Positions 6,857 to 24,757 of a DNA stretch of 24,757 nt are shown here, one piece after another. The notes under the pieces were generated by a model. That model was not told where the DNA came from, searched no databases, and saw only the letters and a list, made by a program, of their open reading frames with translations. This stretch comes from a virus (taxonomy: Duplodnaviria > Caudoviricetes): positions 1 to 24,757 of the IMG/VR virus record IMGVR_UViG_3300030095_002321; one strand, 5' to 3'. Positions within the stretch are counted from its first letter, which is position 1. Each line of letters opens with the position of its first letter. The translations under genes were made by a program, and so were the position numbers.

Positions 6857-7651
6857 GAAACAAAAGAAAAGAAAAAGCCTGCGGCTAAAGCCACAGCAAC
6901 TCCTGAAGTAAAAAAAGATACTTGGGAGTATAAAGATAGAAATTATTATTTACTGCACGGTAAAGAACCTTTAACGTACACTTTAATTAGTAGGCATTCT
7001 AAAAGATACCCTTGTGTTTGGTTTGACAAAGATAAAGGTTATGAAAGAGAGTTAAGATACGCTACAAATCAAAAGTCAATATTTGTAGATGAACAAAAAG
7101 GTAATGTTACTCTAGCTCATGTAGTATTTGAAAAGGGTCATTTATTTGTACCTAAAGAAAAAAGAAATTTACAAGAATTTTTAGCGCATCATCCTCATTT
7201 TAATTTATTATTTACAGAACACGATGCTGTTGTAGAAGCTGCAGATGATTATGATTTATTAAAACTAGAAATGGAAGCGATGAACGCTGCGGTTGGAATA
7301 GATGTAGATCAAGCAGAAGCTATAATGAGAGTTGAATTAGGAACTCAAGTGAATAAATTAAGTTCTAAAGAGCTAAAAAGAGATGTTTTAATATTTGCTA
7401 AAAGAAATCCTAAATTATTTTTAGATTTAGTAAATGATGAAAACGTTGTATTAAGAAACTTTGCTATTACAGCAAGAGAAGCTAATATAATAAGTTTATC
7501 TCAAGATCAAAGAACATTTACTTGGGCTAGCAATGGTCGAAAGCTAATGAATGTACCTTTTGATGAAAACCCATATTCAGCTATGGCTGCATGGTTTAAA
7601 ACAGATGAAGGACTTGATGTTTATAAATCTATCGAGAAAAAATTTAAATAA
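6854..7651 (+). CDS. Conserved phage hypothetical protein, probably virion-associated (265 aa)
   Basis: Clean ORF flanked by two terminators inside the structural module. No catalytic motif recognised. Confidence 0.6.
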   Translation: METKEKKKPAAKATATPEVKKDTWEYKDRNYYLLHGKEPLTYTLISRHSKRYPCVWFDKDKGYERELRYATNQKSIFVDEQKGNVTLAHVVFEKGHLFVPKEKRNLQEFLAHHPHFNLLFTEHDAVVEAADDYDLLKLEMEAMNAAVGIDVDQAEAIMRVELGTQVNKLSSKELKRDVLIFAKRNPKLFLDLVNDENVVLRNFAITAREANIISLSQDQRTFTWASNGRKLMNVPFDENPYSAMAAWFKTDEGLDVYKSIEKKFK

Positions 7652-7665
7652 CAAGTGACTATAAT
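7647..7665 (+). promoter_or_regulatory. AATAACAAGTGA motif copy 1 followed by CTATAAT (candidate phage promoter)
   Basis: Identical 12-mer at 13015-13026. Both copies overlap a TAA stop and extend into an intergenic gap. Confidence 0.4.
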
Positions 7666-7666
7666 T

Positions 7667-7697
7667 AAGGGTGGTTTTATCGCCACCCTTTTTTTTT
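7667..7697 (+). terminator. Rho-independent terminator
   Basis: AAGGGTGG-TTTTATCG-CCACCCTT forms an 8-bp stem, followed by T9 (7689-7697). Confidence 0.8.
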
Positions 7698-9587: not shown

Positions 9588-12500
9588 ATGGCTGAAATAA
9601 AAAATACTTTTCTCAAGTCTAAAATGAATAAAGACTTAGACGCTAGGCTTTTACCTAATGGTGAGTATAGAGATGCTCAAAATATCAATATAAGCAGATC
9701 AGAAGGACCAGACGTTGGTGCTATTGAAAATGTTTTAGGTAATATAATAAAAGGTGTTAATGTAAGTTTAAAAGAAGATATAGCAGCTTTAGAAAGACAA
9801 AAAGTAACAGAAAAGTATGGCACTGTAATAAGACCAACTGAATTAACTTTGCCTAATCTAGAGGTAATAGGTTATTATATGGATATATTTAACGATAAAA
9901 TATATTTATTTCTAACTGATTACACTGATGGTTCTAATAATCAATTAAGCAATTTTGCACCTGCAGATTACATAGATACATCTAGTGGTTTCCCAGGTGT
10001 TTTTATTTACAAGGGAGCTGGGTGTTATATAGCTGAATACAATGTCAACACAAACACTTATAGGATTTTAGTTGCTGGAAACTTTCTTAATTTTTCTAAA
10101 ACACAACCTATTTTAAACGTAAACTTATTAGAGGATTTATTATTTTGGACTGATAATAGGAATCAGCCAAGGAAAATAAATATACAAAGAGCATTTGACG
10201 ACAGCTATGAATTTTCAGGAACTAATAATCCTTATTATTTTAATGAAGACCAAGTATCTGTTTCTAAGTTTGCTCCATATGAAGCTTTTAGCTTTTTAGA
10301 CGCATCTAATAATCCTACTTTAATTTCAAATTCAGAAGAATACTTGCCTGCTCATATTATTACTACAGCTGTGTATACTAGAGCTACGGGTTTGTTTACA
10401 TTTTCAAGCCCTGCTTATTCTACAATAACTCAAGATGCCAACAACCCTGATTTAAAAGCTCAAGCAACTGGTGTTATTGGAGATAAAATTACTGTAAATG
10501 ATGAAGACGAGTATATTGTAACAAGCGTGACTACTTTGACCGCTACAGCAACTTCAGCTATAAATCAGTATACAGACGGCATAACTGTTAAGGTTATGAT
10601 ACAAAGAGCAAATCCAGAATATAATAGTAGTTATAAAGGAGACACTAATTTACTAAAAGATGAGTTTGCTAAATTTAGCTATAGATTTAAATATGAAGAT
10701 GATGAATATTCTTTGATAGCTCCGTTTACACAATCTGCTTTTGTTCCACAACAATTCGGCTATTTTATAAATGACGATGAGCAAGTAACTTTAGAAAGTG
10801 GTAATGTTAGCTTTATGGAAAATAGAGTTGACCAAGTTAAATTAAACCTAATACTACCAGACTTAGGATCTAATATAAAAAATAATTTAAAAATATCAGA
10901 ACTACAAATATTAGTAAAAAACTCTGATGAATTAGCAGTTAGAGTTATAGAAGATGTGCCAGTAAGCGTTTTAACAGCTTTAGGAGCAACCAATAAGTAT
11001 CAATATAACTATTTATCATCTAAGCCTTTTAAAGTGCTTCCTGAAGCAGAATTAATAAGGGTATTTGATAAAGTCCCTATAAGAGCATTAACGCAAGAAG
11101 TAGTTTCTAATAGAGTTGTTTATGGTAATTTTTTAGATAAACATAGTTCTCCAAATAACTTGCATTATGATTTAAATTATAATCAAAAAACTTACCCGTC
11201 TGGAAGCAGTGATCAAGATCAAGCAAATAGGAATTTAAGCAATGAGTTTCCTTTACATACTTTAAAGCAAAACAGAAGTTATCAAGTTGGTATAGTGTTA
11301 GTCGATAGATATGGTAGGGCTTCAAACGTATTATTAAATGATGAAAATAATGTAACTGCAGGTAGTAAAAATTCTACTATATATACTTCATATGAAAACT
11401 TTGGAGCTAACAGTGTTAACTTTACTGGTAATTATTTAGATTTAACTTTAAGATCTGAAGTTCCTTTAACACTATCTAAGAAAGGTTATCCAGGTTTATA
11501 TTCAGAAACAAACCCATTAGGATATTATAGTTATAGAATTGTTGTAAAACAACAGGATCAAGATTACTATAATGTTTACACACCTGGTGCTTTAGCTGGG
11601 GAAATATATTGGGATACTATTGGTTACACTGAAAACAACACTGATTTTCCCGTGGCTAATGGGGCAGGTAATTCTGAATTTTTGCCATCTTTCATTTCAA
11701 CTAATAAATTATCTACATTAACTTTAAGTGGAGACAATATAAATAAAGTTCCAAGAGAGTTAAATACTATTAGTGGTAATCAAGATACTTTTGGCAGTGA
11801 AACTTTATTGTTTAATAGAGTAAATCCTATTTATAATAGCACTTCTAGCGTTTCTTATAATACACAATCTTCTATTGGGGCTCAAGGATCTAAAGTCGCT
11901 TCTATTCAGTCTTTTAGAGACTTAGGAAGATGGACAACTACTAAAGGTGAATTGTATCCAGGTGGAATTAATGATGCTGCTGATAGTACAACGCAAAATC
12001 CTATACCTTGGTATCCGTATTTTGTTAGTGGTAGCGCTGCTGCAGATTTTAAATTTAACTTTCATGATATACTTTTTGATGCGCAAGCAAATCCTTTTGT
12101 TGCAGTTATAGAGACTGTTGGTTTTAAAATTGGATCAACCCCAACGTATACAGATAAATCAACTATTGAACGAGCATGGCAAGATTTAGGGGTTTTTGAA
12201 ACAAGACCTACTAAATCTGTTTTAGATATTTTTTGGGAAAGTTCAAGTTCAGGTTTAATATCTGATTTTAATAATGAAGTAGTCAATCTCGTTCCTAAAG
12301 GAATTGAAGATTCAGCTGGCAATAATACTTCATTAGGGCAAAATGTACAATATATACATACAGAAGCCACCGCTAGTGGTGCAGATGCTACATTGTTCTT
12401 TGAATTAGTAGATGCTGCTGGAGTTAAACTTACAACAAATTCTACTTTAGCAATAGATTTAGTAACCGATGGAACTGGTGCTGATAGATCTGCAGAGTTT

Positions 12501-13019
12501 CAAATATTAACGGATAACACTGGAAGTGTAACTAAGTATAAAATACAAACAAACGCTTTATTTGTGTTTAACTCAAATGCTAACGTAAACGAAAACTACA
12601 CATTTAATTTACTAGCTACTGATACTTCTGCTTCACCAACTCCTTTATATACTAATGCTCCTATAAGAATAAGCAGTTGCCAGTTACTGGATATAGCACC
12701 TATATTTAATAGTAATCCACCTACTGTTGTTACAAAACCTATAGGTAATTTATTTACCATGACAGGTGATAGTTTTTTAAACGGTTCAATTGACACTAGT
12801 AGAAATAAAGAGCAATTGTTTTTAGCAGTTGTAGACGCAACTACCGAAGCTTTGTATCCAGAAATATACGTAGTGCCTAACACCGGGTCTAATCAAGATA
12901 GAACAATTATAGCAAGCAATTTAGCAGTTGATGGATCATATAAGTTAAAACTAGTTGACGCTAATGGTACAGGTTTAAGTAGCCTGTCTAGTCAATTTGA
13001 TGTAATAATTACTCAATAA
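9588..13019 (+). CDS. Tail nozzle/muzzle (stabilization) protein, N-terminal part (1143 aa)
   Basis: N-terminus FLKSKMNKDLDARLLPNGEYRDAQNI, plus LLFWTDNRNQPRKINI, FSYRFKYEDDEYS and YQVGIVLVDRYGR, recalled from crAss-like muzzle/P22 gp10-like proteins. Beta-rich C-terminal extension. Confidence 0.7.
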   Translation: MAEIKNTFLKSKMNKDLDARLLPNGEYRDAQNINISRSEGPDVGAIENVLGNIIKGVNVSLKEDIAALERQKVTEKYGTVIRPTELTLPNLEVIGYYMDIFNDKIYLFLTDYTDGSNNQLSNFAPADYIDTSSGFPGVFIYKGAGCYIAEYNVNTNTYRILVAGNFLNFSKTQPILNVNLLEDLLFWTDNRNQPRKINIQRAFDDSYEFSGTNNPYYFNEDQVSVSKFAPYEAFSFLDASNNPTLISNSEEYLPAHIITTAVYTRATGLFTFSSPAYSTITQDANNPDLKAQATGVIGDKITVNDEDEYIVTSVTTLTATATSAINQYTDGITVKVMIQRANPEYNSSYKGDTNLLKDEFAKFSYRFKYEDDEYSLIAPFTQSAFVPQQFGYFINDDEQVTLESGNVSFMENRVDQVKLNLILPDLGSNIKNNLKISELQILVKNSDELAVRVIEDVPVSVLTALGATNKYQYNYLSSKPFKVLPEAELIRVFDKVPIRALTQEVVSNRVVYGNFLDKHSSPNNLHYDLNYNQKTYPSGSSDQDQANRNLSNEFPLHTLKQNRSYQVGIVLVDRYGRASNVLLNDENNVTAGSKNSTIYTSYENFGANSVNFTGNYLDLTLRSEVPLTLSKKGYPGLYSETNPLGYYSYRIVVKQQDQDYYNVYTPGALAGEIYWDTIGYTENNTDFPVANGAGNSEFLPSFISTNKLSTLTLSGDNINKVPRELNTISGNQDTFGSETLLFNRVNPIYNSTSSVSYNTQSSIGAQGSKVASIQSFRDLGRWTTTKGELYPGGINDAADSTTQNPIPWYPYFVSGSAAADFKFNFHDILFDAQANPFVAVIETVGFKIGSTPTYTDKSTIERAWQDLGVFETRPTKSVLDIFWESSSSGLISDFNNEVVNLVPKGIEDSAGNNTSLGQNVQYIHTEATASGADATLFFELVDAAGVKLTTNSTLAIDLVTDGTGADRSAEFQILTDNTGSVTKYKIQTNALFVFNSNANVNENYTFNLLATDTSASPTPLYTNAPIRISSCQLLDIAPIFNSNPPTVVTKPIGNLFTMTGDSFLNGSIDTSRNKEQLFLAVVDATTEALYPEIYVVPNTGSNQDRTIIASNLAVDGSYKLKLVDANGTGLSSLSSQFDVIITQ

Positions 13020-13026
13020 CAAGTGA
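13015..13026 (+). promoter_or_regulatory. AATAACAAGTGA motif copy 2
   Basis: Identical to 7647-7658 and ends 9 nt upstream of ATG 13036. Confidence 0.4.
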
Positions 13027-13035
13027 TAGTATATT

Positions 13036-14727
13036 ATGGCTAAAATAAAGTTTTTCAACGCTTTTGTATTAAAAAAGAATATAAATAATACTACTGGTAC
13101 TGGGGAAGCTGCATATCAACCTGTTTTCCCTGGGCTACCTAGTAACCCTCAAAACTATCCTTTATATCCTACTTCTGCTAGCTCACCTTTAGGAAGAACA
13201 AAACCTATAACAACACTTAGCGATAACGATAGAAACTGGATTATTGAAGAAGCTAGAATTACTGGTGGTTTTAACAACGTTAATGGTGGCTACGGCGTTA
13301 GAGCTTATTTAATAGAAGATACTAATGAGCAAGTAAGAAGACTAAACGCTTTGATTTACTCTGGGCTGTACAACTCTATAACTAATGTTAACGATACTAA
13401 TGTTTTTTCAGTTGGTGAACAAATAACAAAAGCAGTTGATCCAATGTATGGTTCTATACAAAAACTAAATGCTTTAGATAGTAATTTAGCTATATTCCAA
13501 GAAAATAAAGTAAGTAGGGCTTTAATAGATAAAGATGCTATTTATTCAGCTGAAGGAGAGTCTGCGTTAACTTCTACAGACAATGTCATTGGTCAGATAA
13601 CACCTTATGTAGGTGAGTATGGAATAAGTAAAAACCCAGAAACATTTGCTGTTTATGGATATAGAAGATATTTTGTAGATAAATATAGGAATGCTGTAAT
13701 GAGGTTGTCAAGAGACGGTATGACACCAATATCTCAATATGGCATGTCAGATTATTTTAGAGATGAATTTAGTAAAATAGAAGATCAATTTAAAGAGTTT
13801 ACTTTTACGTGTGTTTTTAATACTGCTCAAACAATAGCACCTTTTAAAATAAATGTAACTGGTTCTAATGTTAATTTTATAGAAAAAGGCATGCAAGTTA
13901 CTATACCGCAGTCTACTGGAAGTATAATAGCAAATGTTGTTGGCGTGTTTGATGAAAATAACATATACTTAGACAGAAGCCCTGGCGCACCTATAGCCGG
14001 TAATATAACTTTTACTAAATATATTAAAGACAGGATTGTAGCTGGTTATGATGTGCACAATCAAAACTATGTTGTATCTACTCAAGACAAAGATGTAGTT
14101 CCAAATGGTACTGACGTTTTTAATACAGTTGCTTTTGAAGATGCAATAAATGGTTGGGTAAGTTTTTACACTTACGAGCCTAAATTTATGGCTAGTTTAA
14201 AAAATAAATATTATAGCTTTTTTGGTTCTGATATTTATGAGCATTATGACAATACAACTGCAAATAACGCTGGACTATTTTACGGAGTTAGAAGCAACTC
14301 AAATATAACTTTCATATTTAACCCTATTGTGTCTGTAACAAAAAACTTTAATACAGTTTCTTATGAAGGAAGTAACGGTTGGCAAATAGATTCTTATGAA
14401 TCAGATTTCCAAGGATTTGATTTAGTTAATAGTAATTATATAGAAAATCAAGATGTTACAAACTCTGTTAAAAGTTATGATGAAGGTTTATATACTGAAA
14501 ACGGTATACCTTTAAGAGCTGGTTTTAATAGAAAAGAAAATAGATACGTATCCAACTTGGTTAGTAATAGCACAGTAAGAGCAGGTGAAGTTATATTTGG
14601 AAATGCTATGTCAGGAATAAAAGGTTATTTTGCTACTGTAAAAATATCTACAGACAATACCACTCAATTAGGTGGACCAAAAGAATTATTTAGCGTATCA
14701 TCAAATTACGTATTATCATCTTATTAA
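13036..14727 (+). CDS. Tail nozzle/muzzle protein, C-terminal part (563 aa, beta-propeller-like)
   Basis: YGSIQKL, IFQENKVSR, YVGEYGISKNPETFA, RLSRDGMTPISQYGM, GWVSFYTY and GIKGYFATV resemble the C-terminal half of crAss-like muzzle proteins. Confidence 0.65.
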   Translation: MAKIKFFNAFVLKKNINNTTGTGEAAYQPVFPGLPSNPQNYPLYPTSASSPLGRTKPITTLSDNDRNWIIEEARITGGFNNVNGGYGVRAYLIEDTNEQVRRLNALIYSGLYNSITNVNDTNVFSVGEQITKAVDPMYGSIQKLNALDSNLAIFQENKVSRALIDKDAIYSAEGESALTSTDNVIGQITPYVGEYGISKNPETFAVYGYRRYFVDKYRNAVMRLSRDGMTPISQYGMSDYFRDEFSKIEDQFKEFTFTCVFNTAQTIAPFKINVTGSNVNFIEKGMQVTIPQSTGSIIANVVGVFDENNIYLDRSPGAPIAGNITFTKYIKDRIVAGYDVHNQNYVVSTQDKDVVPNGTDVFNTVAFEDAINGWVSFYTYEPKFMASLKNKYYSFFGSDIYEHYDNTTANNAGLFYGVRSNSNITFIFNPIVSVTKNFNTVSYEGSNGWQIDSYESDFQGFDLVNSNYIENQDVTNSVKSYDEGLYTENGIPLRAGFNRKENRYVSNLVSNSTVRAGEVIFGNAMSGIKGYFATVKISTDNTTQLGGPKELFSVSSNYVLSSY

Positions 14728-17648: not shown

Positions 17649-20600
17649 ATGAACGAAGAATATTTACAAGACTTACATAAATATTTAAATATAGAAGCGG
17701 ATTACAATGAATGGAAAGATTCTATTGTAAATGATGAAGAATATTTAAAAGGTCTTCATGGCTATTTAAAAGTAGAAGCTGACTATAATGACTGGGCTGG
17801 TGAAGTTTTTGGAACTGAAACAATTACTGAGACTACAGAAGCTCCAGCAGTGGAAGATACGGAGTTAGTTTCGGAAGATATTTCTTTGGATGGACAACCT
17901 GAGTGGGAACCAAAAGTATTTACAAGTGAGGGAGAAGTAGATACAGCTTATTATGAGGATTTAGGTATGATGGAGGTTGAAAAACAAAATTATAATACCT
18001 GGAAAGAAAATCAATATAACAAAGCTGAACAAGATTTTTACACAACTGGAACAGAAGTAGCATTTACAAAGCCGTCTGACATAGCTAATAAATTAGAAAA
18101 CATAAAACAAATTAATTTAGAAGTTGAAAATAAACTTAAAAGTTTGGATTTCTCTAAAGCTAAAGATGAAAAAGATGTTATTGCAGATGTTGATCTAGCA
18201 AAACAAGATTTAATATTAAAAGACCCTGTACTAAAAGAACAAATAACTAAAACTTCTGAGATATTAAATAAACAACTTGAAAGAGATGTTAAAAAAATAA
18301 CAGATAAGTTTAATCTTGATATGAATACTGTTGCTCAAGATCTTTCTACTAAATATGATCTATCTAACGCAGATCAAGTTGAATTAGCTAATAAAGAGCT
18401 TGATAAAATTAGAAATGAAAGATTAGCTAAAGCACAACCAGAGTTAGATGAATTAAATAAACAATACGAATCATTTAGAGCTGGAGCTTTAGATAGAATG
18501 CAAGAGTCTCCTATATTTAAAAATAGAGTACAATTAATTAACGAAAGTTTAAACGAACAAGCTACACCTTACTTGAGAGAGTGGAAAATAAATAATTTAG
18601 AAGGTTTTGGAAGTTTATTAAAATATGTTGACAATACACCCCTAGCTCAATTTATAGCGGGTAGTGAACAAATAGGTCAATCTTTTGAAGCTGCTAAAAT
18701 ATCTTTAAAACAGTTAGGTGTAAATAAAATAAAACAACAAATAGATGAAGCTAACGCTTCTAATAGTGGGTTAGGTATAAAAGATGATCAAACTGTTTAT
18801 GTTTACCCTGATGGAGCTATAGATTTTGATAAAAGTGGTATTAAACGACCTGCATTTATGACACAAGCACCTTCAACTCCTAGAGAAGGTAAATTTGATA
18901 TTACCGGCAAGTTGATAACGGAAAGACAAGGAGTTTTTGGCGAAGTTTCTAGTAAGCCTATGACCTTTGCTGATTATAAAAAAATGCAAAAAACTAAAAA
19001 ACAAGAGTTTTCTGAAGGTATAAAAGTAAACTTAGAAGAGATAAAAGCTTTTGATGATGTATTAAGCTTAGTTGAGCAGCCGGAGTTTTTAGATGAAGAT
19101 GGTGCCACTACTATGGATGTTATTAATACTGTTTTTAGAATGTCTCCTCAATTAGGTATTAGTATTGGTGGTGGTTTACTAACTCCAGCTACTGGAGGTT
19201 CTTCATTAGTAGCTTCTACTGTTTTAATGTTTGGTCAAGAATATGGTAGTAATTATTGGGAAGCTTTAAAAACAGGTTTAAGAGAAGAAATAAAAGAAAA
19301 AGAAGGAGTAGAAAGAGAACCAACTAATGACGAAATAGTAGATGCTTTAATTAATAATAAATACCAAGCGCAAGGCGAAGCCGCTGGGTGGAGTGCTGTT
19401 TCTTCATTGTTAGAGCAAGGTACAGCTTTAAGAGGTGCAAAATCCCTAAAAGGATTAAATAATTCTATGCTTAATCTTTCTAAAAAATTAGGTTACAAAG
19501 ATATAAAAGACATGTTAATTAAAACTGGTAAAAGCGATTTTAACGACATGTTAAAAGGAGGAGGCCAGTTATTAATAAAATATGGTAAAGGCGGTATAAA
19601 TGAATTTTTTACAGAAGGCGCTCAAGCTTTAACCAATCAAGCAGCCGTATCTCAAGCATTAGGTGGTACTGCTGTAGACAGAATAGATGTTAAAAATACT
19701 TTAGAAGAAGGTATAGCTGGTGGGGTTATGGGTATAGTGCTACCTGGTATCCCAGGAATGGTAAAAGGAGGAGCTAATTTTATAAGACAAACAGCTTACA
19801 AAGCTTCAATAGGAAATGTTGAAGCTAAAAAGTTTGATAAATTTTTTAAAGATGCTGCTTTATCTTTGCAAGATTTGTATGATAATGGTAAAATAACTCA
19901 AGAACAATACCAACAACAATCACAAGAAGTAGCTAATTTAAAAAATTCTGCATTAAAAATACCTAAAAACTTTGGACCTAAAGCTAGGCAAAAATCTTTA
20001 GATTTAATGTTAGAAAGACAAAAGCTTCAAACAAAGATAAAAAATGAAGATGAAGCTTTTACTGGTCCAGCTAAACAAAGGGTTGTAGAAATAAACAAAG
20101 AACTTGGTAATATACAGTCTGTAGAAAGCGCTACTAGAGCAGCTGTTAAAGCTGTTGAAAAAGCTGATATTGATTTAAATGTAATAGAGCTAGATACTGA
20201 AGCCGATGTAGAAAATTATCTTAAAGAAAATACAAATATGGCGGCTTCTAAAGCTAAAGAAGCTGGTAAGCAAAGAGGATTTATACTTGAAGATGGTAAA
20301 ACTATTATTATAAATAAAGATGTAGCTTCTAAAGAAGGTGCTGTAACTACAGCTGGCCATGAAATACTACATGGTATTTTGTTTAATACACTTAACAAAG
20401 GTGATGAAAGTGCTTTTGCTTTAGCTAATGCTATTAAAATGCAATTAAGTAATATTAGCACTGAAGACTTTAAAAACTCAGATCTTGCTGCTAGAATAGA
20501 ACAATATAAAGCAGATCCTGATATTAATGAAGCTACAAAAGCTGAAGAAGTATTAACATTATTTTCTGAGGCAATAGCCACTGGTGATATTAAATTTGAA

Positions 20601-23600
20601 GAAGGAGTATTTACTAAATTAAAAGACTTTGTTAGACGTATATTACAAAATGCTGGTTTTAGTAATATAGATTTTAATGATAGTAAAGATGTATATAACT
20701 TTATAAAAGACTATAATAAATCTGTAAGTAAAGGTAAATTTACTAAAGCTCAAGTTAAAGCAGCTAAAGAAGGAGTTGTTGTAAGTGAAAGATTAAAAGA
20801 TAGAGTTAAAGATGTAGCTGAAAAAGGAGTTGACGAGACTATACTTAAGTTTTCTAAATCTGAAGTAACAGACTTAGCTAAGCAATATAAGAAAGATCCA
20901 GCTAATACAGACGTAGAGGAATTAATAAAGCAATATGATAATGTAGCTTTAAAAGCTTTAGGATATGATATATCTAAAGGAACTATCGCTCCAGAAGAAG
21001 CTATATCATTTGTTAATAAAGAGTTTGATAGTATATTAAGAAGGTATGATGGATCAACAGAATTTTCTACTTGGGTTAATTCTAATATAAGACCTAAACG
21101 TCAAGCGTTTTATGATGAACAAATAGGTAAACAAGCAGAGACAACTAGTATTGACTCAGAGCAAGCTAGACAAGTTGTAGGTGATTCAGATATTACAACT
21201 GATGATAGGACTGAAAAAGAAATAAGACAAGCAGAAAGAAAGATTAAGGTAGCTAAAAGATTAAACTTAGAAGATAAAGCTGTAAAAGAAGTAAGTGATA
21301 AAGTAAAAGATATTGATTTATCTAAAGTTAATTATAAAACTCTTAAAAACTTAGCTAATGAAACTATTGGTGAAGCATTTGGTATATCACCTAAGAAAAT
21401 ATTAAGTAATGCTAATTTAACTAAAAGTGAAATAGCTAGCGCTCAAAGATATATAAAAAATAATATTGATTTATTAAAAGCTTTATTACCTGATGGCTAT
21501 AACAAAGATTTTAAATCTACTGGTGTTCCTAAAGTATTACTTGATAAGTTTTATAACAAGCGTAGTGTAAGAGCTAAGACAGGTGCTGGATTAAATGTAC
21601 AAATAAAAAAACCTAATATTACAGATAAAGAATTTCTAGAAGTATTTGGATTTGTAGATGGTAAACCAACTAGAGATGATAGAAATATATCTGCTAGAAT
21701 AATTGCTTTAGCTAATCAAACTGGTAAAGCTATAACTAATCAAACTGTTAGAGAGCAATTACAAAAAGAAGGTATGCCTGAATCTGCTTTACAAGATATT
21801 AAAAGTGGTACGCCAACTGCTATGTTTAGTTTATCTAAGGTAAAAAACGAACTTGACAAAATTAATAAATCTAAAAATAAAGACAAAAAATCTGGTAAAG
21901 AAGAGCTAGATCTAATTGTCGATGCTCAAGGTTTAGCAAACGTACGTGGTGATGTTAACACTTTAAGATCTGTAATGTTAATGGTTGCTGATAAAGCTAA
22001 AAAATTTGGATTAGATGGTATTAATAAAATTTTAATGCCTGGTAATTTAACTTCTGGTAATAGAGTCGATTTATTAAGAAGGTTTGGTTTTAATGTAATA
22101 TCTAATCCAGAAAAAATTAAAGATACAAAATTAAAAAAAGAAGCTTATGAAGCTATAGAAAAAGGAGAGTTTTTAAATTTAAGTTCAGTATTAAAAGAAG
22201 TTACTAAAGGCGTTGATAAAATTAAAAATGAAAATGTAGATGCAATTAAAGTTGCACTAGCAGCTAAAAGTGGTGAAGCTGCTAGAAGAAATGCAAGTAG
22301 AAAAAAACAACACGACAAAGGAGTTAAGTTAAATACTAATTTAGAATTAGATATATTTTTAGAAAGTGCAGAAGGAGAAGCTTTTATAAGATTGATTGGT
22401 CATAATGATAAGTTAAATAAAAACGCAAGTAGAAATCAAGCTTTACCTAATTCTGTTGAAGTAGGTGCTACAGTAAATGGTAAAAGAAGATCTGAAACTA
22501 CCGACGAACATCAATGGCAAGCTAATGAGTGGGTTAAAGGTAAGCTAAAATTGTTTAAAAATATAAAAAATAACATAGGAACTAAGCAAGAAAAAATAGC
22601 TAGAAAAGCTCTTGATTTATACTTAGATTTTAGTAAAGATAACTATACTCAATTTTTATTAAAAAACGAAACAGATATTATAAAAGGCGATTTAGTTAAT
22701 GATAAAGGTAAAGTATGGAAAAGATCTGATCGTACTTTACATCCAGTTTTTAAAGAAAAACTAAATAATTTTATAGAATTAGCTAGCAAAAAAGAAACAA
22801 CAGAAGAACAATTACAAAAAGCTTTTAATGAAATACCTTCAGCTGATATAAGATATTTTAGTGATTATGGATATGTTAATCCTAACTTTATTAGAACTTA
22901 TAAAGCTGATGGTAGCTACACAACTAAAGCTGAAGAGTATAACGTTGTTGTTCCTAATAAATTTAAAAATGATCCTAATGTTATTATACAACAAGGTAAA
23001 ATAATAGAATCAATTATACTTACTGAAGCTGGTATATTAACAGGTGCTAATGCTGTAACTAAAGCTGATGCAAAACAGTTAATTAATGAAAATTTAAAAA
23101 TAGCTTCAAGTCAATTAAAAGCTAGTAAAAGTACTAATAAAATTCTTGCAGACTCTAAAGTATTAGATGTAAAAGGAAATTTAAGTATGCAGGATTTGTT
23201 AAATAAAGCTGCTAGTATAGATGAAGCTTTAAATATTGCTAGAGATTTTAACGCTCCTGTTAAAAAAATTAGAGTATTTGATTTTGATGATACATTAGCA
23301 ACTACTAAATCTAATGTTTTATTTACAGCGCCTGATGGAACAGAAGGTAGCTTAACTGCAGAAGAGTTTGCTACTAAAGGTAAAGACTTACTAGATCAAG
23401 GTTATGTATTTGATTTTACTGAATTTGATAAAGTAACTAAAGGTAAACCTGGTCCACTATTAGAAGTAGCCAAAAAAATACAAGCAGCAAGAGGTACTGA
23501 AGACGTATTTGTATTAACAGCAAGAGCACCTGAAGCTGCTATAGCTATTAAAGAATTTTTAGATAGTCAAGGATTAAATATACCATTAAAAAATATAACT

Positions 23601-24757
23601 GGTTTAGGTAACTCTACAGGTGAAGCTAAAGCTAATTGGATGATAGATAAAGCGGCTGAGGGCTATAATGATTTTTATTTTGCTGATGATGCATATCAAA
23701 ATGTTAAATCAGTTAGAGATGTAATGTCTGTAATAGATGTTAAGTCTAAAACACAGCAAGCTAAATTTTCTTTATCTAAAGATTTATCTAAAGATTTTAA
23801 CAACTTAATAGAAGAATCTACAGGCATTGGTGCAGAAAAAGTTTTTTCAGATGTTAAAGCAAAATTAAGAGGAGGAAAAAAGAAAGGTCAAAGATTTTTT
23901 ATACCACCATCCGCTGAAGATATGTTAGGTTTAGTATATACGACTTTAGGTAAAGGTAAAAAAGGTGAAGCTCATATGAGATTTTATCAAGAAAATTTAT
24001 TTGACCCTTACACTAGAGCTATGGAAAATTTATCAACTGATAGAGTGAATTTAATGGCTGATTTTAAAGCTCTTAAAAAAGAATTAGACGTACCTAAAGA
24101 TTTACAAAAAACTACTGAATCAGGATTTACTAACGAACAAGCAGTGAGAGTTTACCTTTGGAACAAGGCAGGAGAAAAAATACCTGGGTTATCAAAAACC
24201 GATTTAAAAGAGTTAAGTGATATAGTAGAGAACAACCCCAAGTTAAAAATATTTGCTGAACAAATAATGTCTATAACTAAAGGTGATGGTTATTCAAAAC
24301 CTAAAGATGCTTGGGCTATAGGAACTATAACAACGGATCTAGTAGATATATTAAACACTACTAAACGTGGGAAGTATTTAGAAACATGGAATCAAAATGT
24401 AGATCAAATATATTCTAAAGACAACTTAAACAAGCTAGAAGCTGCTTACGGTAGAAAATATAGAGATGCTGTTGAAAACAGTTTAGAACGTATGAAATCT
24501 GGTAGTAACAGACTTAAAGGTGGTAATAAACTTAGTAACGACGTTTTAGATTATATAAATAATTCTACCGCTGTAACTATGTTTGTTAATGTTAGATCAG
24601 CATTACTTCAGACTATATCATCAGCTAACTTTATTAACTGGAGCTTTAATAATCCATTTAAAGCAGGTAAAGCTTTTGCGAACCAACCTCAGTATTGGAA
24701 AGATTTTACTAAATTAATGAACTCAGATTATTTAGTAGATAGACGTAATGGACTTAA
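17649..24757 (+). CDS. Giant multidomain (polyvalent) virion/ejection protein, over 2369 aa, 3'-truncated; absent from the supplied ORF track
   Basis: ATG at 17649, 6 nt after the previous stop, with A at -3. Hand translation gives no stop up to the window end (...MNSDYLVDRRNGL). Contains HEILH, FSTW, an HTH-like segment and HAD motifs I-IV. Confidence 0.93.
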   Translation, partial: MNEEYLQDLHKYLNIEADYNEWKDSIVNDEEYLKGLHGYLKVEADYNDWAGEVFGTETITETTEAPAVEDTELVSEDISLDGQPEWEPKVFTSEGEVDTAYYEDLGMMEVEKQNYNTWKENQYNKAEQDFYTTGTEVAFTKPSDIANKLENIKQINLEVENKLKSLDFSKAKDEKDVIADVDLAKQDLILKDPVLKEQITKTSEILNKQLERDVKKITDKFNLDMNTVAQDLSTKYDLSNADQVELANKELDKIRNERLAKAQPELDELNKQYESFRAGALDRMQESPIFKNRVQLINESLNEQATPYLREWKINNLEGFGSLLKYVDNTPLAQFIAGSEQIGQSFEAAKISLKQLGVNKIKQQIDEANASNSGLGIKDDQTVYVYPDGAIDFDKSGIKRPAFMTQAPSTPREGKFDITGKLITERQGVFGEVSSKPMTFADYKKMQKTKKQEFSEGIKVNLEEIKAFDDVLSLVEQPEFLDEDGATTMDVINTVFRMSPQLGISIGGGLLTPATGGSSLVASTVLMFGQEYGSNYWEALKTGLREEIKEKEGVEREPTNDEIVDALINNKYQAQGEAAGWSAVSSLLEQGTALRGAKSLKGLNNSMLNLSKKLGYKDIKDMLIKTGKSDFNDMLKGGGQLLIKYGKGGINEFFTEGAQALTNQAAVSQALGGTAVDRIDVKNTLEEGIAGGVMGIVLPGIPGMVKGGANFIRQTAYKASIGNVEAKKFDKFFKDAALSLQDLYDNGKITQEQYQQQSQEVANLKNSALKIPKNFGPKARQKSLDLMLERQKLQTKIKNEDEAFTGPAKQRVVEINKELGNIQSVESATRAAVKAVEKADIDLNVIELDTEADVENYLKENTNMAASKAKEAGKQRGFILEDGKTIIINKDVASKEGAVTTAGHEILHGILFNTLNKGDESAFALANAIKMQLSNISTEDFKNSDLAARIEQYKADPDINEATKAEEVLTLFSEAIATGDIKFEEGVFTKLKDFVRRILQNAGFSNIDFNDSKDVYNFIKDYNKSVSKGKFTKAQVKAAKEGVVVSERLKDRVKDVAEKGVDETILKFSKSEVTDLAKQYKKDPANTDVEELIKQYDNVALKALGYDISKGTIAPEEAISFVNKEFDSILRRYDGSTEFSTWVNSNIRPKRQAFYDEQIGKQAETTSIDSEQARQVVGDSDITTDDRTEKEIRQAERKIKVAKRLNLEDKAVKEVSDKVKDIDLSKVNYKTLKNLANETIGEAFGISPKKILSNANLTKSEIASAQRYIKNNIDLLKALLPDGYNKDFKSTGVPKVLLDKFYNKRSVRAKTGAGLNVQIKKPNITDKEFLEVFGFVDGKPTRDDRNISARIIALANQTGKAITNQTVREQLQKEGMPESALQDIKSGTPTAMFSLSKVKNELDKINKSKNKDKKSGKEELDLIVDAQGLANVRGDVNTLRSVMLMVADKAKKFGLDGINKILMPGNLTSGNRVDLLRRFGFNVISNPEKIKDTKLKKEAYEAIEKGEFLNLSSVLKEVTKGVDKIKNENVDAIKVALAAKSGEAARRNASRKKQHDKGVKLNTNLELDIFLESAEGEAFIRLIGHNDKLNKNASRNQALPNSVEVGATVNGKRRSETTDEHQWQANEWVKGKLKLFKNIKNNIGTKQEKIARKALDLYLDFSKDNYTQFLLKNETDIIKGDLVNDKGKVWKRSDRTLHPVFKEKLNNFIELASKKETTEEQLQKAFNEIPSADIRYFSDYGYVNPNFIRTYKADGSYTTKAEEYNVVVPNKFKNDPNVIIQQGKIIESIILTEAGILTGANAVTKADAKQLINENLKIASSQLKASKSTNKILADSKVLDVKGNLSMQDLLNKAASIDEALNIARDFNAPVKKIRVFDFDDTLATTKSNVLFTAPDGTEGSLTAEEFATKGKDLLDQGYVFDFTEFDKVTKGKPGPLLEVAKKIQAARGTEDVFVLTARAPEAAIAIKEFLDSQGLNIPLKNITGLGNSTGEAKANWMIDKAAEGYNDFYFADDAYQNVKSVRDVMSVIDVKSKTQQAKFSLSKDLSKDFNNLIEESTGIGAEKVFSDVKAKLRGGKKKGQRFFIPPSAEDMLGLVYTTLGKGKKGEAHMRFYQENLFDPYTRAMENLSTDRVNLMADFKALKKELDVPKDLQKTTESGFTNEQAVRVYLWNKAGEKIPGLSKTDLKELSDIVENNPKLKIFAEQIMSITKGDGYSKPKDAWAIGTITTDLVDILNTTKRGKYLETWNQNVDQIYSKDNLNKLEAAYGRKYRDAVENSLERMKSGSNRLKGGNKLSNDVLDYINNSTAVTMFVNVRSALLQTISSANFINWSFNNPFKAGKAFANQPQYWKDFTKLMNSDYLVDRRNGL
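17652..17813 (+). repeat. Two tandem 27-aa (81-nt) repeats at the N-terminus of the giant protein
   Basis: NEEYLQDLHKYLNIEADYNEWKDSIVN / DEEYLKGLHGYLKVEADYNDWAGEVFG. Confidence 0.85.
20160..20720 (+). other. Zincin-like metallopeptidase domain within the giant protein
   Basis: QRGFILEDGKTIIINKD strand pair, TAGHEILHGIL (HExxH at 20358-20372, H904-H908) and downstream KAEEVLTLFSE helix (20544) as candidate third ligand. Boundaries approximate. Confidence 0.78.
20910..21410 (+). other. Sigma70-family-like module within the giant protein
   Basis: ILRRYDGSTEFSTWVNSNIRPKR resembles region 2.3-2.4 (FSTW at 21063-21074). LANETIGEAFGISPKKILSN resembles the region 4.2 HTH (21351-21410). Confidence 0.5.
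23262..23730 (+). other. HAD-superfamily phosphatase domain within the giant protein
   Basis: Motif I IRVFDFDDTL (23268-23297), motif II VFVLTAR (23505-23525), motif III K in EAKANW (23628), motif IV FYFADDAYQN (23673-23702). Confidence 0.85.

Follow-up and report, generated by a model that had tools for sequence, protein, structure and literature searches.

The 24,757-nt window analysed here ends in a giant open reading frame (ORF) that encodes, within one polypeptide, a zincin-like metallopeptidase (MPTase) domain, a predicted sigma-70 family region 2 domain (sigma-2), a compact domain that we call X, a polymorphic cassette (V), a predicted HAD-superfamily phosphatase and a helical tail (Table 1). 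Our best explanation, to which we assign a probability of roughly 0.45, is that the gene encodes an injected polyprotein that is cut by its zincin at recurring joints, with a sigma-2/X piece that starts early transcription. A protein of ~2700 residues would be carried inside the particle, leave it together with the DNA and be cut by its own zincin at joints of the K/M-F-S-K type. The freed sigma-2 and X piece would then dock on the host RNA polymerase and switch on the early genes of the phage at a GATAAT-type promoter foreign to the host. The EH cassette, the HAD phosphatase and, where present, a P-loop kinase would do their work during the first minutes of infection, with the ends of nucleic acids as the most plausible targets. 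What would seem to weigh this explanation down is that the cultured relatives share only the zincin with the giant protein and that a separate sigma factor is also encoded.

A giant gene that closes the virion block

The giant gene is a single open frame with no stop before the end of the window, in agreement with the sequence-only reading, which had pointed to an unannotated 7.1-kb frame running off the end. In 168 full-length relatives the tail that follows the last matched block has a median length of 357 aa (range 217–482), which places the missing end at ~350 aa. Terminase, portal, capsid and tail genes lie upstream, and the muzzle is of the crassvirus type, matching PF25729 (crAss_MUZ_C) above the cut-off (E 7e-8). 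Both muzzle ORFs also match phrog_14478, at opposite ends of one family of 1474 positions. The order of muzzle, two genes and giant gene recurs in the cultured podophages phi38:1, phi19:3 and elemoF, and the 213-aa ORF matches phi38:1 gp99 (E 2e-5); by analogy with this arrangement, the 213- and 750-aa products are likely smaller ejected proteins. The giant gene is the final and largest gene of the virion block and thus occupies the podovirus-like slot after the nozzle that had been claimed for it. Its equivalents in cultured podophages carry the annotation "structural", assigned by similarity, and from its position we consider it likely that the giant protein is packaged and ejected.

The window comprises the late arm only, and no early motif lies in it. 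Its source is an uncultured marine crAss-related podophage, a placement that rests on similarity ranks, and its host and morphology are read from its closest cultured phages. By capsid and portal these infect Flavobacterium, Cellulophaga, Maribacter and Tenacibaculum, so that the host probably belongs to the Flavobacteriia, and those among them that are dealt with in the relevant part of PMC8776804 are podoviral. The whole giant protein gave nothing significant in Pfam, PHROG or PDB sequence searches, and neither it nor its tail matched a cultured phage by tblastn; the giant of phi38:1 goes unmentioned in the pertinent text of PMC13288928.

Table 1 Features of the giant gene and its neighbours (positions in the window; residues of the giant protein)
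Feature	Position	Strand	Remarks
Muzzle (tail nozzle) gene	9588..14727	+	two ORFs, 1143 + 563 aa
Two genes, 213 and 750 aa	14738..17642	+	between muzzle and giant gene
Giant ORF	17649..24755	+	2369 aa, 3' open; full size about 2700 aa by relatives
Two-copy 27-aa repeat at N-terminus	17649..17816	+	profile in 9/202 proteins
Gly-rich, moderately hydrophobic segments	19137..19763	+	residues ~497-530 and 687-705, variable N-terminal part
Zincin-like metallopeptidase domain (putative protease)	20235..20765	+	residues 863-1039; H904, E905, H908, E967
Joint J1 (KFSK)	20847..20858	+	joint motif before sigma-2
Sigma-70 family region 2 domain (predicted)	20859..21143	+	residues 1071-1165, includes FSTW
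Domain X	21246..21821	+	residues ~1200-1391, compact alpha/beta, basic beta-hairpin
Joint J2 (MFSL)	21822..21833	+	joint motif after X
Polymorphic cassette V	22188..23027	+	invariant Glu-His (E1620, H1621)
Joint J3 (KASK), probable	23118..23129	+	before HAD; weak (11/61 at p<0.05)
HAD-superfamily phosphatase domain (predicted)	23241..23756	+	D1878, D1880, T1882, T1957, K1994, D2013, D2014
Joint J4 (KFSL)	23763..23774	+	joint motif after HAD
C-terminal tail, first half	23799..24755	+	most conserved module, ~650 aa in relatives; helical

Modules of the giant protein and the motif at their joints

Relatives were searched for with residues 850–2369, taking the best 120 of 2048 clusters together with 79 viral loci, and the family counts given here rest on 202 sequences that are biased towards close relatives. 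These giants share a common frame of variable N-terminus, zincin, sigma-2, X, cassette V, HAD and tail, within which blocks have been exchanged freely, and they thereby unite an MPTase hub and a changing set of enzyme domains on a single chain, as polyvalent proteins do. The features listed in the sequence-only reading all occur along the giant ORF in the order given there, with the exception of one helix-turn-helix (HTH)-like detail discussed below, and the comparison of domain order in homologues that it had called for shows the order from zincin to tail to be shared. Among other variants of the frame, the giant gene is divided into two ORFs in L018 and L021, with the break inside the tail module, and an unnamed cassette of ~110 aa (P0012 residues 1846–1955, and 16 other proteins) varies in position between giants. 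Optional cassettes carry their own copy of the joint motif described below, as does the ~110-aa cassette when it follows HAD.

The tandem repeat that had been noticed at the N-terminus is present in two copies of 27 residues, with 14 identities among 28 residues when offset by 27 and at most three at other offsets from 20 to 34; at the DNA level it went undetected by TRF. The Gly-rich hydrophobic helices of the same reading are present as segments but make weak membrane helices, the Kyte-Doolittle peaks of stretches 510–528 and 687–705 reaching just 1.3–1.4, and a membrane role for them is conceivable from their composition.

The HExxH motif that had been taken for a zincin is well supported. 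HEILH occupies residues 904–908, and H904, E905, H908 and the downstream E967 are invariant in all 45 aligned sequences; in the model, two strands precede the HExxH helix, and E967 lies on a second helix (107–124 of the model). An [HE]ExxH motif is found in 166 of the 168 full-length relatives, with EExxH in place of HExxH in P0024 and P0061, both of which keep the joint motif. HExxH followed by a downstream Glu is the pattern that the section of PMC5512222 on polyvalent MPTases gives for them, and residues 863–1039 thus resemble a zincin-like MPTase, putatively a protease. The zincin fold appeared in none of the fold-search lists, which were filled by sigma-2, the zincin having been modelled only alongside it.

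For the sigma-2 domain three methods agree. The best VIA match (Z 8.3, rmsd 3.1) aligned 91 residues to SigI6, the top 15 VIA rows were all sigma or sigma-like, and a second fold search gave a similar result; matches included T4 gp55 (7d7d_F, Z 6.3) and AR9 (7s01_A, Z 5.8). Atlas, which uses language-model features, assigned Sigma70_r2 (0.95, 23 of 30 matches), and the PDB profile search returned three matches only, all of them sigma factors (E 0.16–0.56). We therefore predict that residues 1071–1165, modelled with pLDDT 53–75, adopt a sigma-2 fold. The sigma-2 profile was found in 157 of 171 relatives, and a sigma-2-like stretch was visible by eye in 7 of 8 misses inspected. The Pfam cut-off for PF04542 (Sigma70_r2) was not reached, with no match in the window and one of 45 segments at E 0.037. 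Foldseek found no PDB match for the 560-residue model at E<=0.001, and a BFVD search returned one match, a member of the family. A predicted complex of sigma-2 with a clamp piece of Flavobacterium RpoC (score 0.01, mark 0.32) weighs neither way.

It is very unlikely, in our view, that the giant has a structural role in ejection or as a tunnel, that its middle domains are carried as passengers or as cargo against host defence with no part in transcription, and that its likeness to sigma-2 reflects a common helical arrangement. A Z of 8.3 lies in the tool's middling range for helical domains, the PDB profile values are as modest as given above, and none of the giant's modules occurs in the proteins at the equivalent position of phi38:1 and phi19:3, all of which would suit such a protein; against it, the three methods name sigma-2 only, at least 157 of 171 relatives retain the sigma-2 slot, and the giant ORFs of three relatives do match PF04542 (genome E 4e-4 to 7e-3).

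The sigma-like factor of the earlier reading thus stands as a predicted sigma-2 fold joined to the unnamed domain X. The HTH-like segment that had been placed after FSTW belongs to this separate domain, which folded alone with a pTM of 0.77 and whose profile was found in 106 of 171 relatives. No PDB match to X exceeded Z 4.2, and sigma-4 was not among the 50 rows returned, an absence that does not amount to exclusion. As X matches no solved fold, we refer to sigma-2 + X rather than to a full sigma factor.

Downstream of X, the profile of cassette V was found in 134 of 171 relatives with its Glu-His invariant, and neither Pfam, the PDB profile nor Atlas gave it a name. We take the Glu-His to resemble the HNH or His-Me nuclease motif, and V may on that motif be nuclease-like. 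Further relatives of V numbered none in one scan and four in a search of short proteins; a look-alike (L038:12038-12607) belongs to stand-alone viral proteins of ~159 aa that have no Pfam family (Atlas 0.96, 75 members). HAD motifs I–IV had also been read from the sequence, and they hold: the elements DFDxT, T, K and DD (DFDDT / LTAR / K / DD in the window) are invariant in all 34 sequences, and DFDDT occurs in 138 of 168 full-length relatives. At E<=0.1, 14 of 34 members matched Pfam HAD, below its cut-off, and 30 of 34 matched DUF2608, which together with the motifs points to a HAD-superfamily phosphatase. Neither HAD nor the tail had a PDB profile match.

A short peptide of the K/M-F-S-K type marks the module joints before sigma-2, after X and on either side of HAD. 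We evaluated these joints in 66 proteins below 55% identity, training a matrix on one joint and trying it on the other: the J2-trained matrix found J4 in 47 of 66, and the J4-trained matrix found J2 in 30 of 38. J1 (14/65) and J3 (11/61) were weaker. The motif was found in none of 37 sigma-2-to-X linkers and in none of 66 stretches preceding the zincin. The linker is long and modelled with low confidence, and the lack of a joint motif within it suggests that sigma-2 and X stay tied as a piece of ~325 residues.

Joint variants (FSE, xSE, ASK, ESK, FSL) tend to agree inside one protein, with 19 of 38 proteins carrying one trimer at both J2 and J4, compared to 8.6 when shuffled; across independent pairs in a tree-aware analysis this covariation was not significant (4.3 same and 0.1 opposite of 6; median p 0.125). 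Between the window and P0106 the tails are near-identical, but the zincins differ, and so do the joints at both sites. In 18 of 23 cases a single gene uses both TCN and AGY serine codons at its joints, and an origin of the motif as a DNA repeat is ruled out for this reason.

The motif fits self-processing, and cleavage at the joints would give five pieces; cutting at the motif appears somewhat more probable than an even chance. The motif might alternatively be a signal for packaging, unfolding or translocation, with the protein staying whole and tethered at the entry site. The virion polymerase of N4 stays uncut, and other points that fit this alternative are the retention of the joint motif by the EExxH variants, a correspondence between motif classes and zincin clusters that is not one-to-one, and the MPTase-bearing proteins that are packaged or transferred whole according to the relevant text of PMC5512222. 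We nonetheless hold it to be unlikely, as the motif occurs only downstream of the zincin and at module ends, with none in the sigma-2-to-X linker, and the zinc ligands are invariant.

Early-arm motifs and the two sigma factors of the relatives

The proposal that this phage delivers a sigma factor instead of its own polymerase finds some support in its relatives. The catalytic polymerase motif DFDxD was found in none of the 202 giants, and phi14:2 gp66, Rpb2_6 and DFDxD were absent from all five near-complete relatives (97–100% complete), in searches whose positive controls for Rpb2_6 and DFDxD worked. The virion RNA polymerase with DxDxD within a transcription block, as in Crassvirales, was likewise found in 0/202 giants and 0/5 genomes, with a positive phi14:2 control. 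A polymerase in the missing C-terminus is also ruled out, since the ends of the relatives have no polymerase motif and ~350 residues are too few for a polymerase. The crAss Epsilon group similarly has no transcription block, according to the relevant passages of 10.1101/2020.03.07.982082 and PMC7886860.

All early-arm data come from relatives, and no early arm was found for the window's own sigma-2 type. Their early arms have repeated two-part motifs that end in GATAAT and lie shortly upstream of small genes, on the sense strand only, with one to seven copies per genome in 18 of the 20 genomes examined and shuffle means of at most 0.08. The motif patterns were set on these same genomes, except L049 and L031, both of which were added after the classes were set and in which classes C and D recurred. 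A de novo search found no motif in 11 of 15 sets, several of those being structural regions. The host promoter consensus is TANNTTTG according to the relevant part of PMC6847099. Between the start of the arm and the stand-alone sigma gene we counted, over the 17,212 intergenic bases of 15 genomes (some with incomplete early arms), 69 GATAATA[TA] sites compared to 4 of the host type (TAHHTTTG), and 12 of the 15 had no host-type site upstream of that gene. The early arm of elemoF, in contrast to those of the window's relatives, has host-type promoter-like sites (6 host-type and 0 GATAAT; its giant has the zincin and no sigma-2), and the Manatee Spring phage has 1 host-type and 0 GATAAT sites. 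Neither sigma-2 nor a stand-alone sigma was found in the parts examined of these two phages (for elemoF, all but 22–30 kb), so that this control cannot separate the two sigmas. Judging from its position and shape, the GATAAT motif looks like a non-host promoter.

The second sigma candidate is a separate gene. A Sigma70_r2 match was obtained in 5/5 near-complete relatives and 8/9 further near-complete records, mostly to a separate sigma gene of ~253 aa. In the early arm of L085 (18434-19192) and at equivalent positions in other relatives, this stand-alone sigma-70, with regions 2 and 4, is flanked by an HTH gene and an ERF recombinase; L085 also shows, at 234-1787, the GroEL-type chaperonin found in relatives. 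Motif class follows sigma-2 (AUC 0.90, nearest neighbour 11/12) slightly better than the stand-alone sigma (0.80, 9/12), and no better than a lineage marker (0.87–0.90). No early sites were found in L028.

We consider it somewhat unlikely that the giant is injected and cut while sigma-2/X serves as a decoy or appropriator that grips the core polymerase and displaces the host sigma, with GATAAT read by an alternative sigma of the host or by the stand-alone sigma, itself packaged or made through leaky transcription. The GATAAT core does not vary, and conservation of the stand-alone sigma reaches 52–84%, whereas sigma-2 domains are just 10–25% identical between classes, as would be expected if the stand-alone sigma read the motif. 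The lack of a detected sigma-4 in X points the same way, as do L007 and L010, whose sigma-2 domains are 90% identical and whose sites differ, and a late-arm element of the AAGTGAT type that has part of the early core. The stand-alone sigma gene, however, sits downstream of the GATAAT motifs, which argues against its product making the first round, and lacks a preceding host-type site in the 12 genomes mentioned. In L061, moreover, the stand-alone sigma is 75–79% identical to those of the class A phages L022 and L026, yet both the sites and the sigma-2 are of class C. We retain the reading in which sigma-2/X starts early transcription, giving an even chance to the step at which it reads the early motif.

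Further repeated elements accompany these motifs. A conserved AAGTGAT-type element lies 4–7 bases before the start of the second muzzle ORF in the window and recurs ahead of genes at 11 sites in related loci. The window also has a pair of similar intergenic AACAAGTGA elements, at 7640-7670 and 13005-13035, each directly after a stop codon; they are candidate late promoters for the stand-alone sigma. The early arms also hold a second group of repeated motifs (L092:413-9969; L093:1887 and 3741; L114 near 16200; L088:13560-18762), including a TGCTATACACG type in both orientations and others, possibly operators or origin repeats.

Comparison with known systems

To our knowledge, phage transcription starts either from host promoters with the host sigma or with a whole polymerase carried in the particle, as in N4 and crAss phages. 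Bringing in a ready-made sigma domain together with the DNA would add a third and cheaper route, in a family of giants that spans over 2000 sequence clusters. More broadly, and a shade more tentatively than our best explanation, we propose that an abundant marine crAss-related lineage may have replaced its virion polymerase with a virion-delivered sigma, in which a zincin would cut lineage-specific joints and a sigma-2/X factor, in which a new fold stands in for sigma-4, would read a private early promoter as part of a two-sigma cascade. Since the joint motif predicts exact cut sites, the idea that polyvalent proteins process themselves can be put to a direct test, and each relative offers a matched factor and promoter that can be tested in vitro without a cultured phage. 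In the literature surveyed, which covers subscription papers thinly, no account emerged of a giant virion-block protein with a sigma domain; this feature seems to be undescribed, and the polyvalent-type architecture appears to be known already.

The sigma-2-centred specificity factors of phages, T4 gp55 among them, are free proteins made during infection for late genes. They resemble the giant's factor in their divergent sigma-2, in having no recognisable sigma-4 and in redirecting a multisubunit polymerase, as we propose for the giant; the difference is that the sigma-2 of the giant lies inside a virion-block protein, fused to X, and would act before phage gene expression. T4 polynucleotide kinase-phosphatase combines a kinase with a phosphatase, and in two relatives of the window a P-loop kinase (AAA_33 / zeta-like) likewise lies inside HAD, but such a kinase occurs in just 3 of 202 giants and is absent from the window.

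Elemovirus gp18 and the terminal structural proteins of Pervagoviridae and Pachyviridae, from podophages of Flavobacteriia, share gene order with the giant, and the portals are 30–42% identical. The zincin is common to the giant and gp18, which in contrast has no match to sigma-2, X, V, HAD or the tail.

Polyvalent proteins built on a zincin-like MPTase hub are described in the relevant text of Iyer et al. 2017 (PMC5512222) as giant, multidomain proteins with swappable enzyme cassettes and proposed self-processing at or after injection, and the giant shares their size, multidomain layout, HExxH with a downstream Glu and swappable cassettes. The giant had no match to the LPD or MPTase-PolyVal Pfam families, and it differs in that the word "sigma" does not occur in the main text of PMC5512222, the relevant portions of which likewise contain no repeated joint motif. 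The gp65–67 block of crAss phage phi14:2, in the pertinent accounts (Drobysheva preprint 10.1101/2020.03.07.982082; Yutin 2021, PMC7886860), shares with our phages a crassvirus-type muzzle, one or more large genes closing the virion block, a zincin and, on our reading, early genes that need a virion-borne factor; unlike that block, the giants have no DFDxD or gp66 match, and sigma-2 occupies the slot. By analogy with both systems, the giant would work like a phage polyvalent protein placed in the slot of the crAss virion polymerase.
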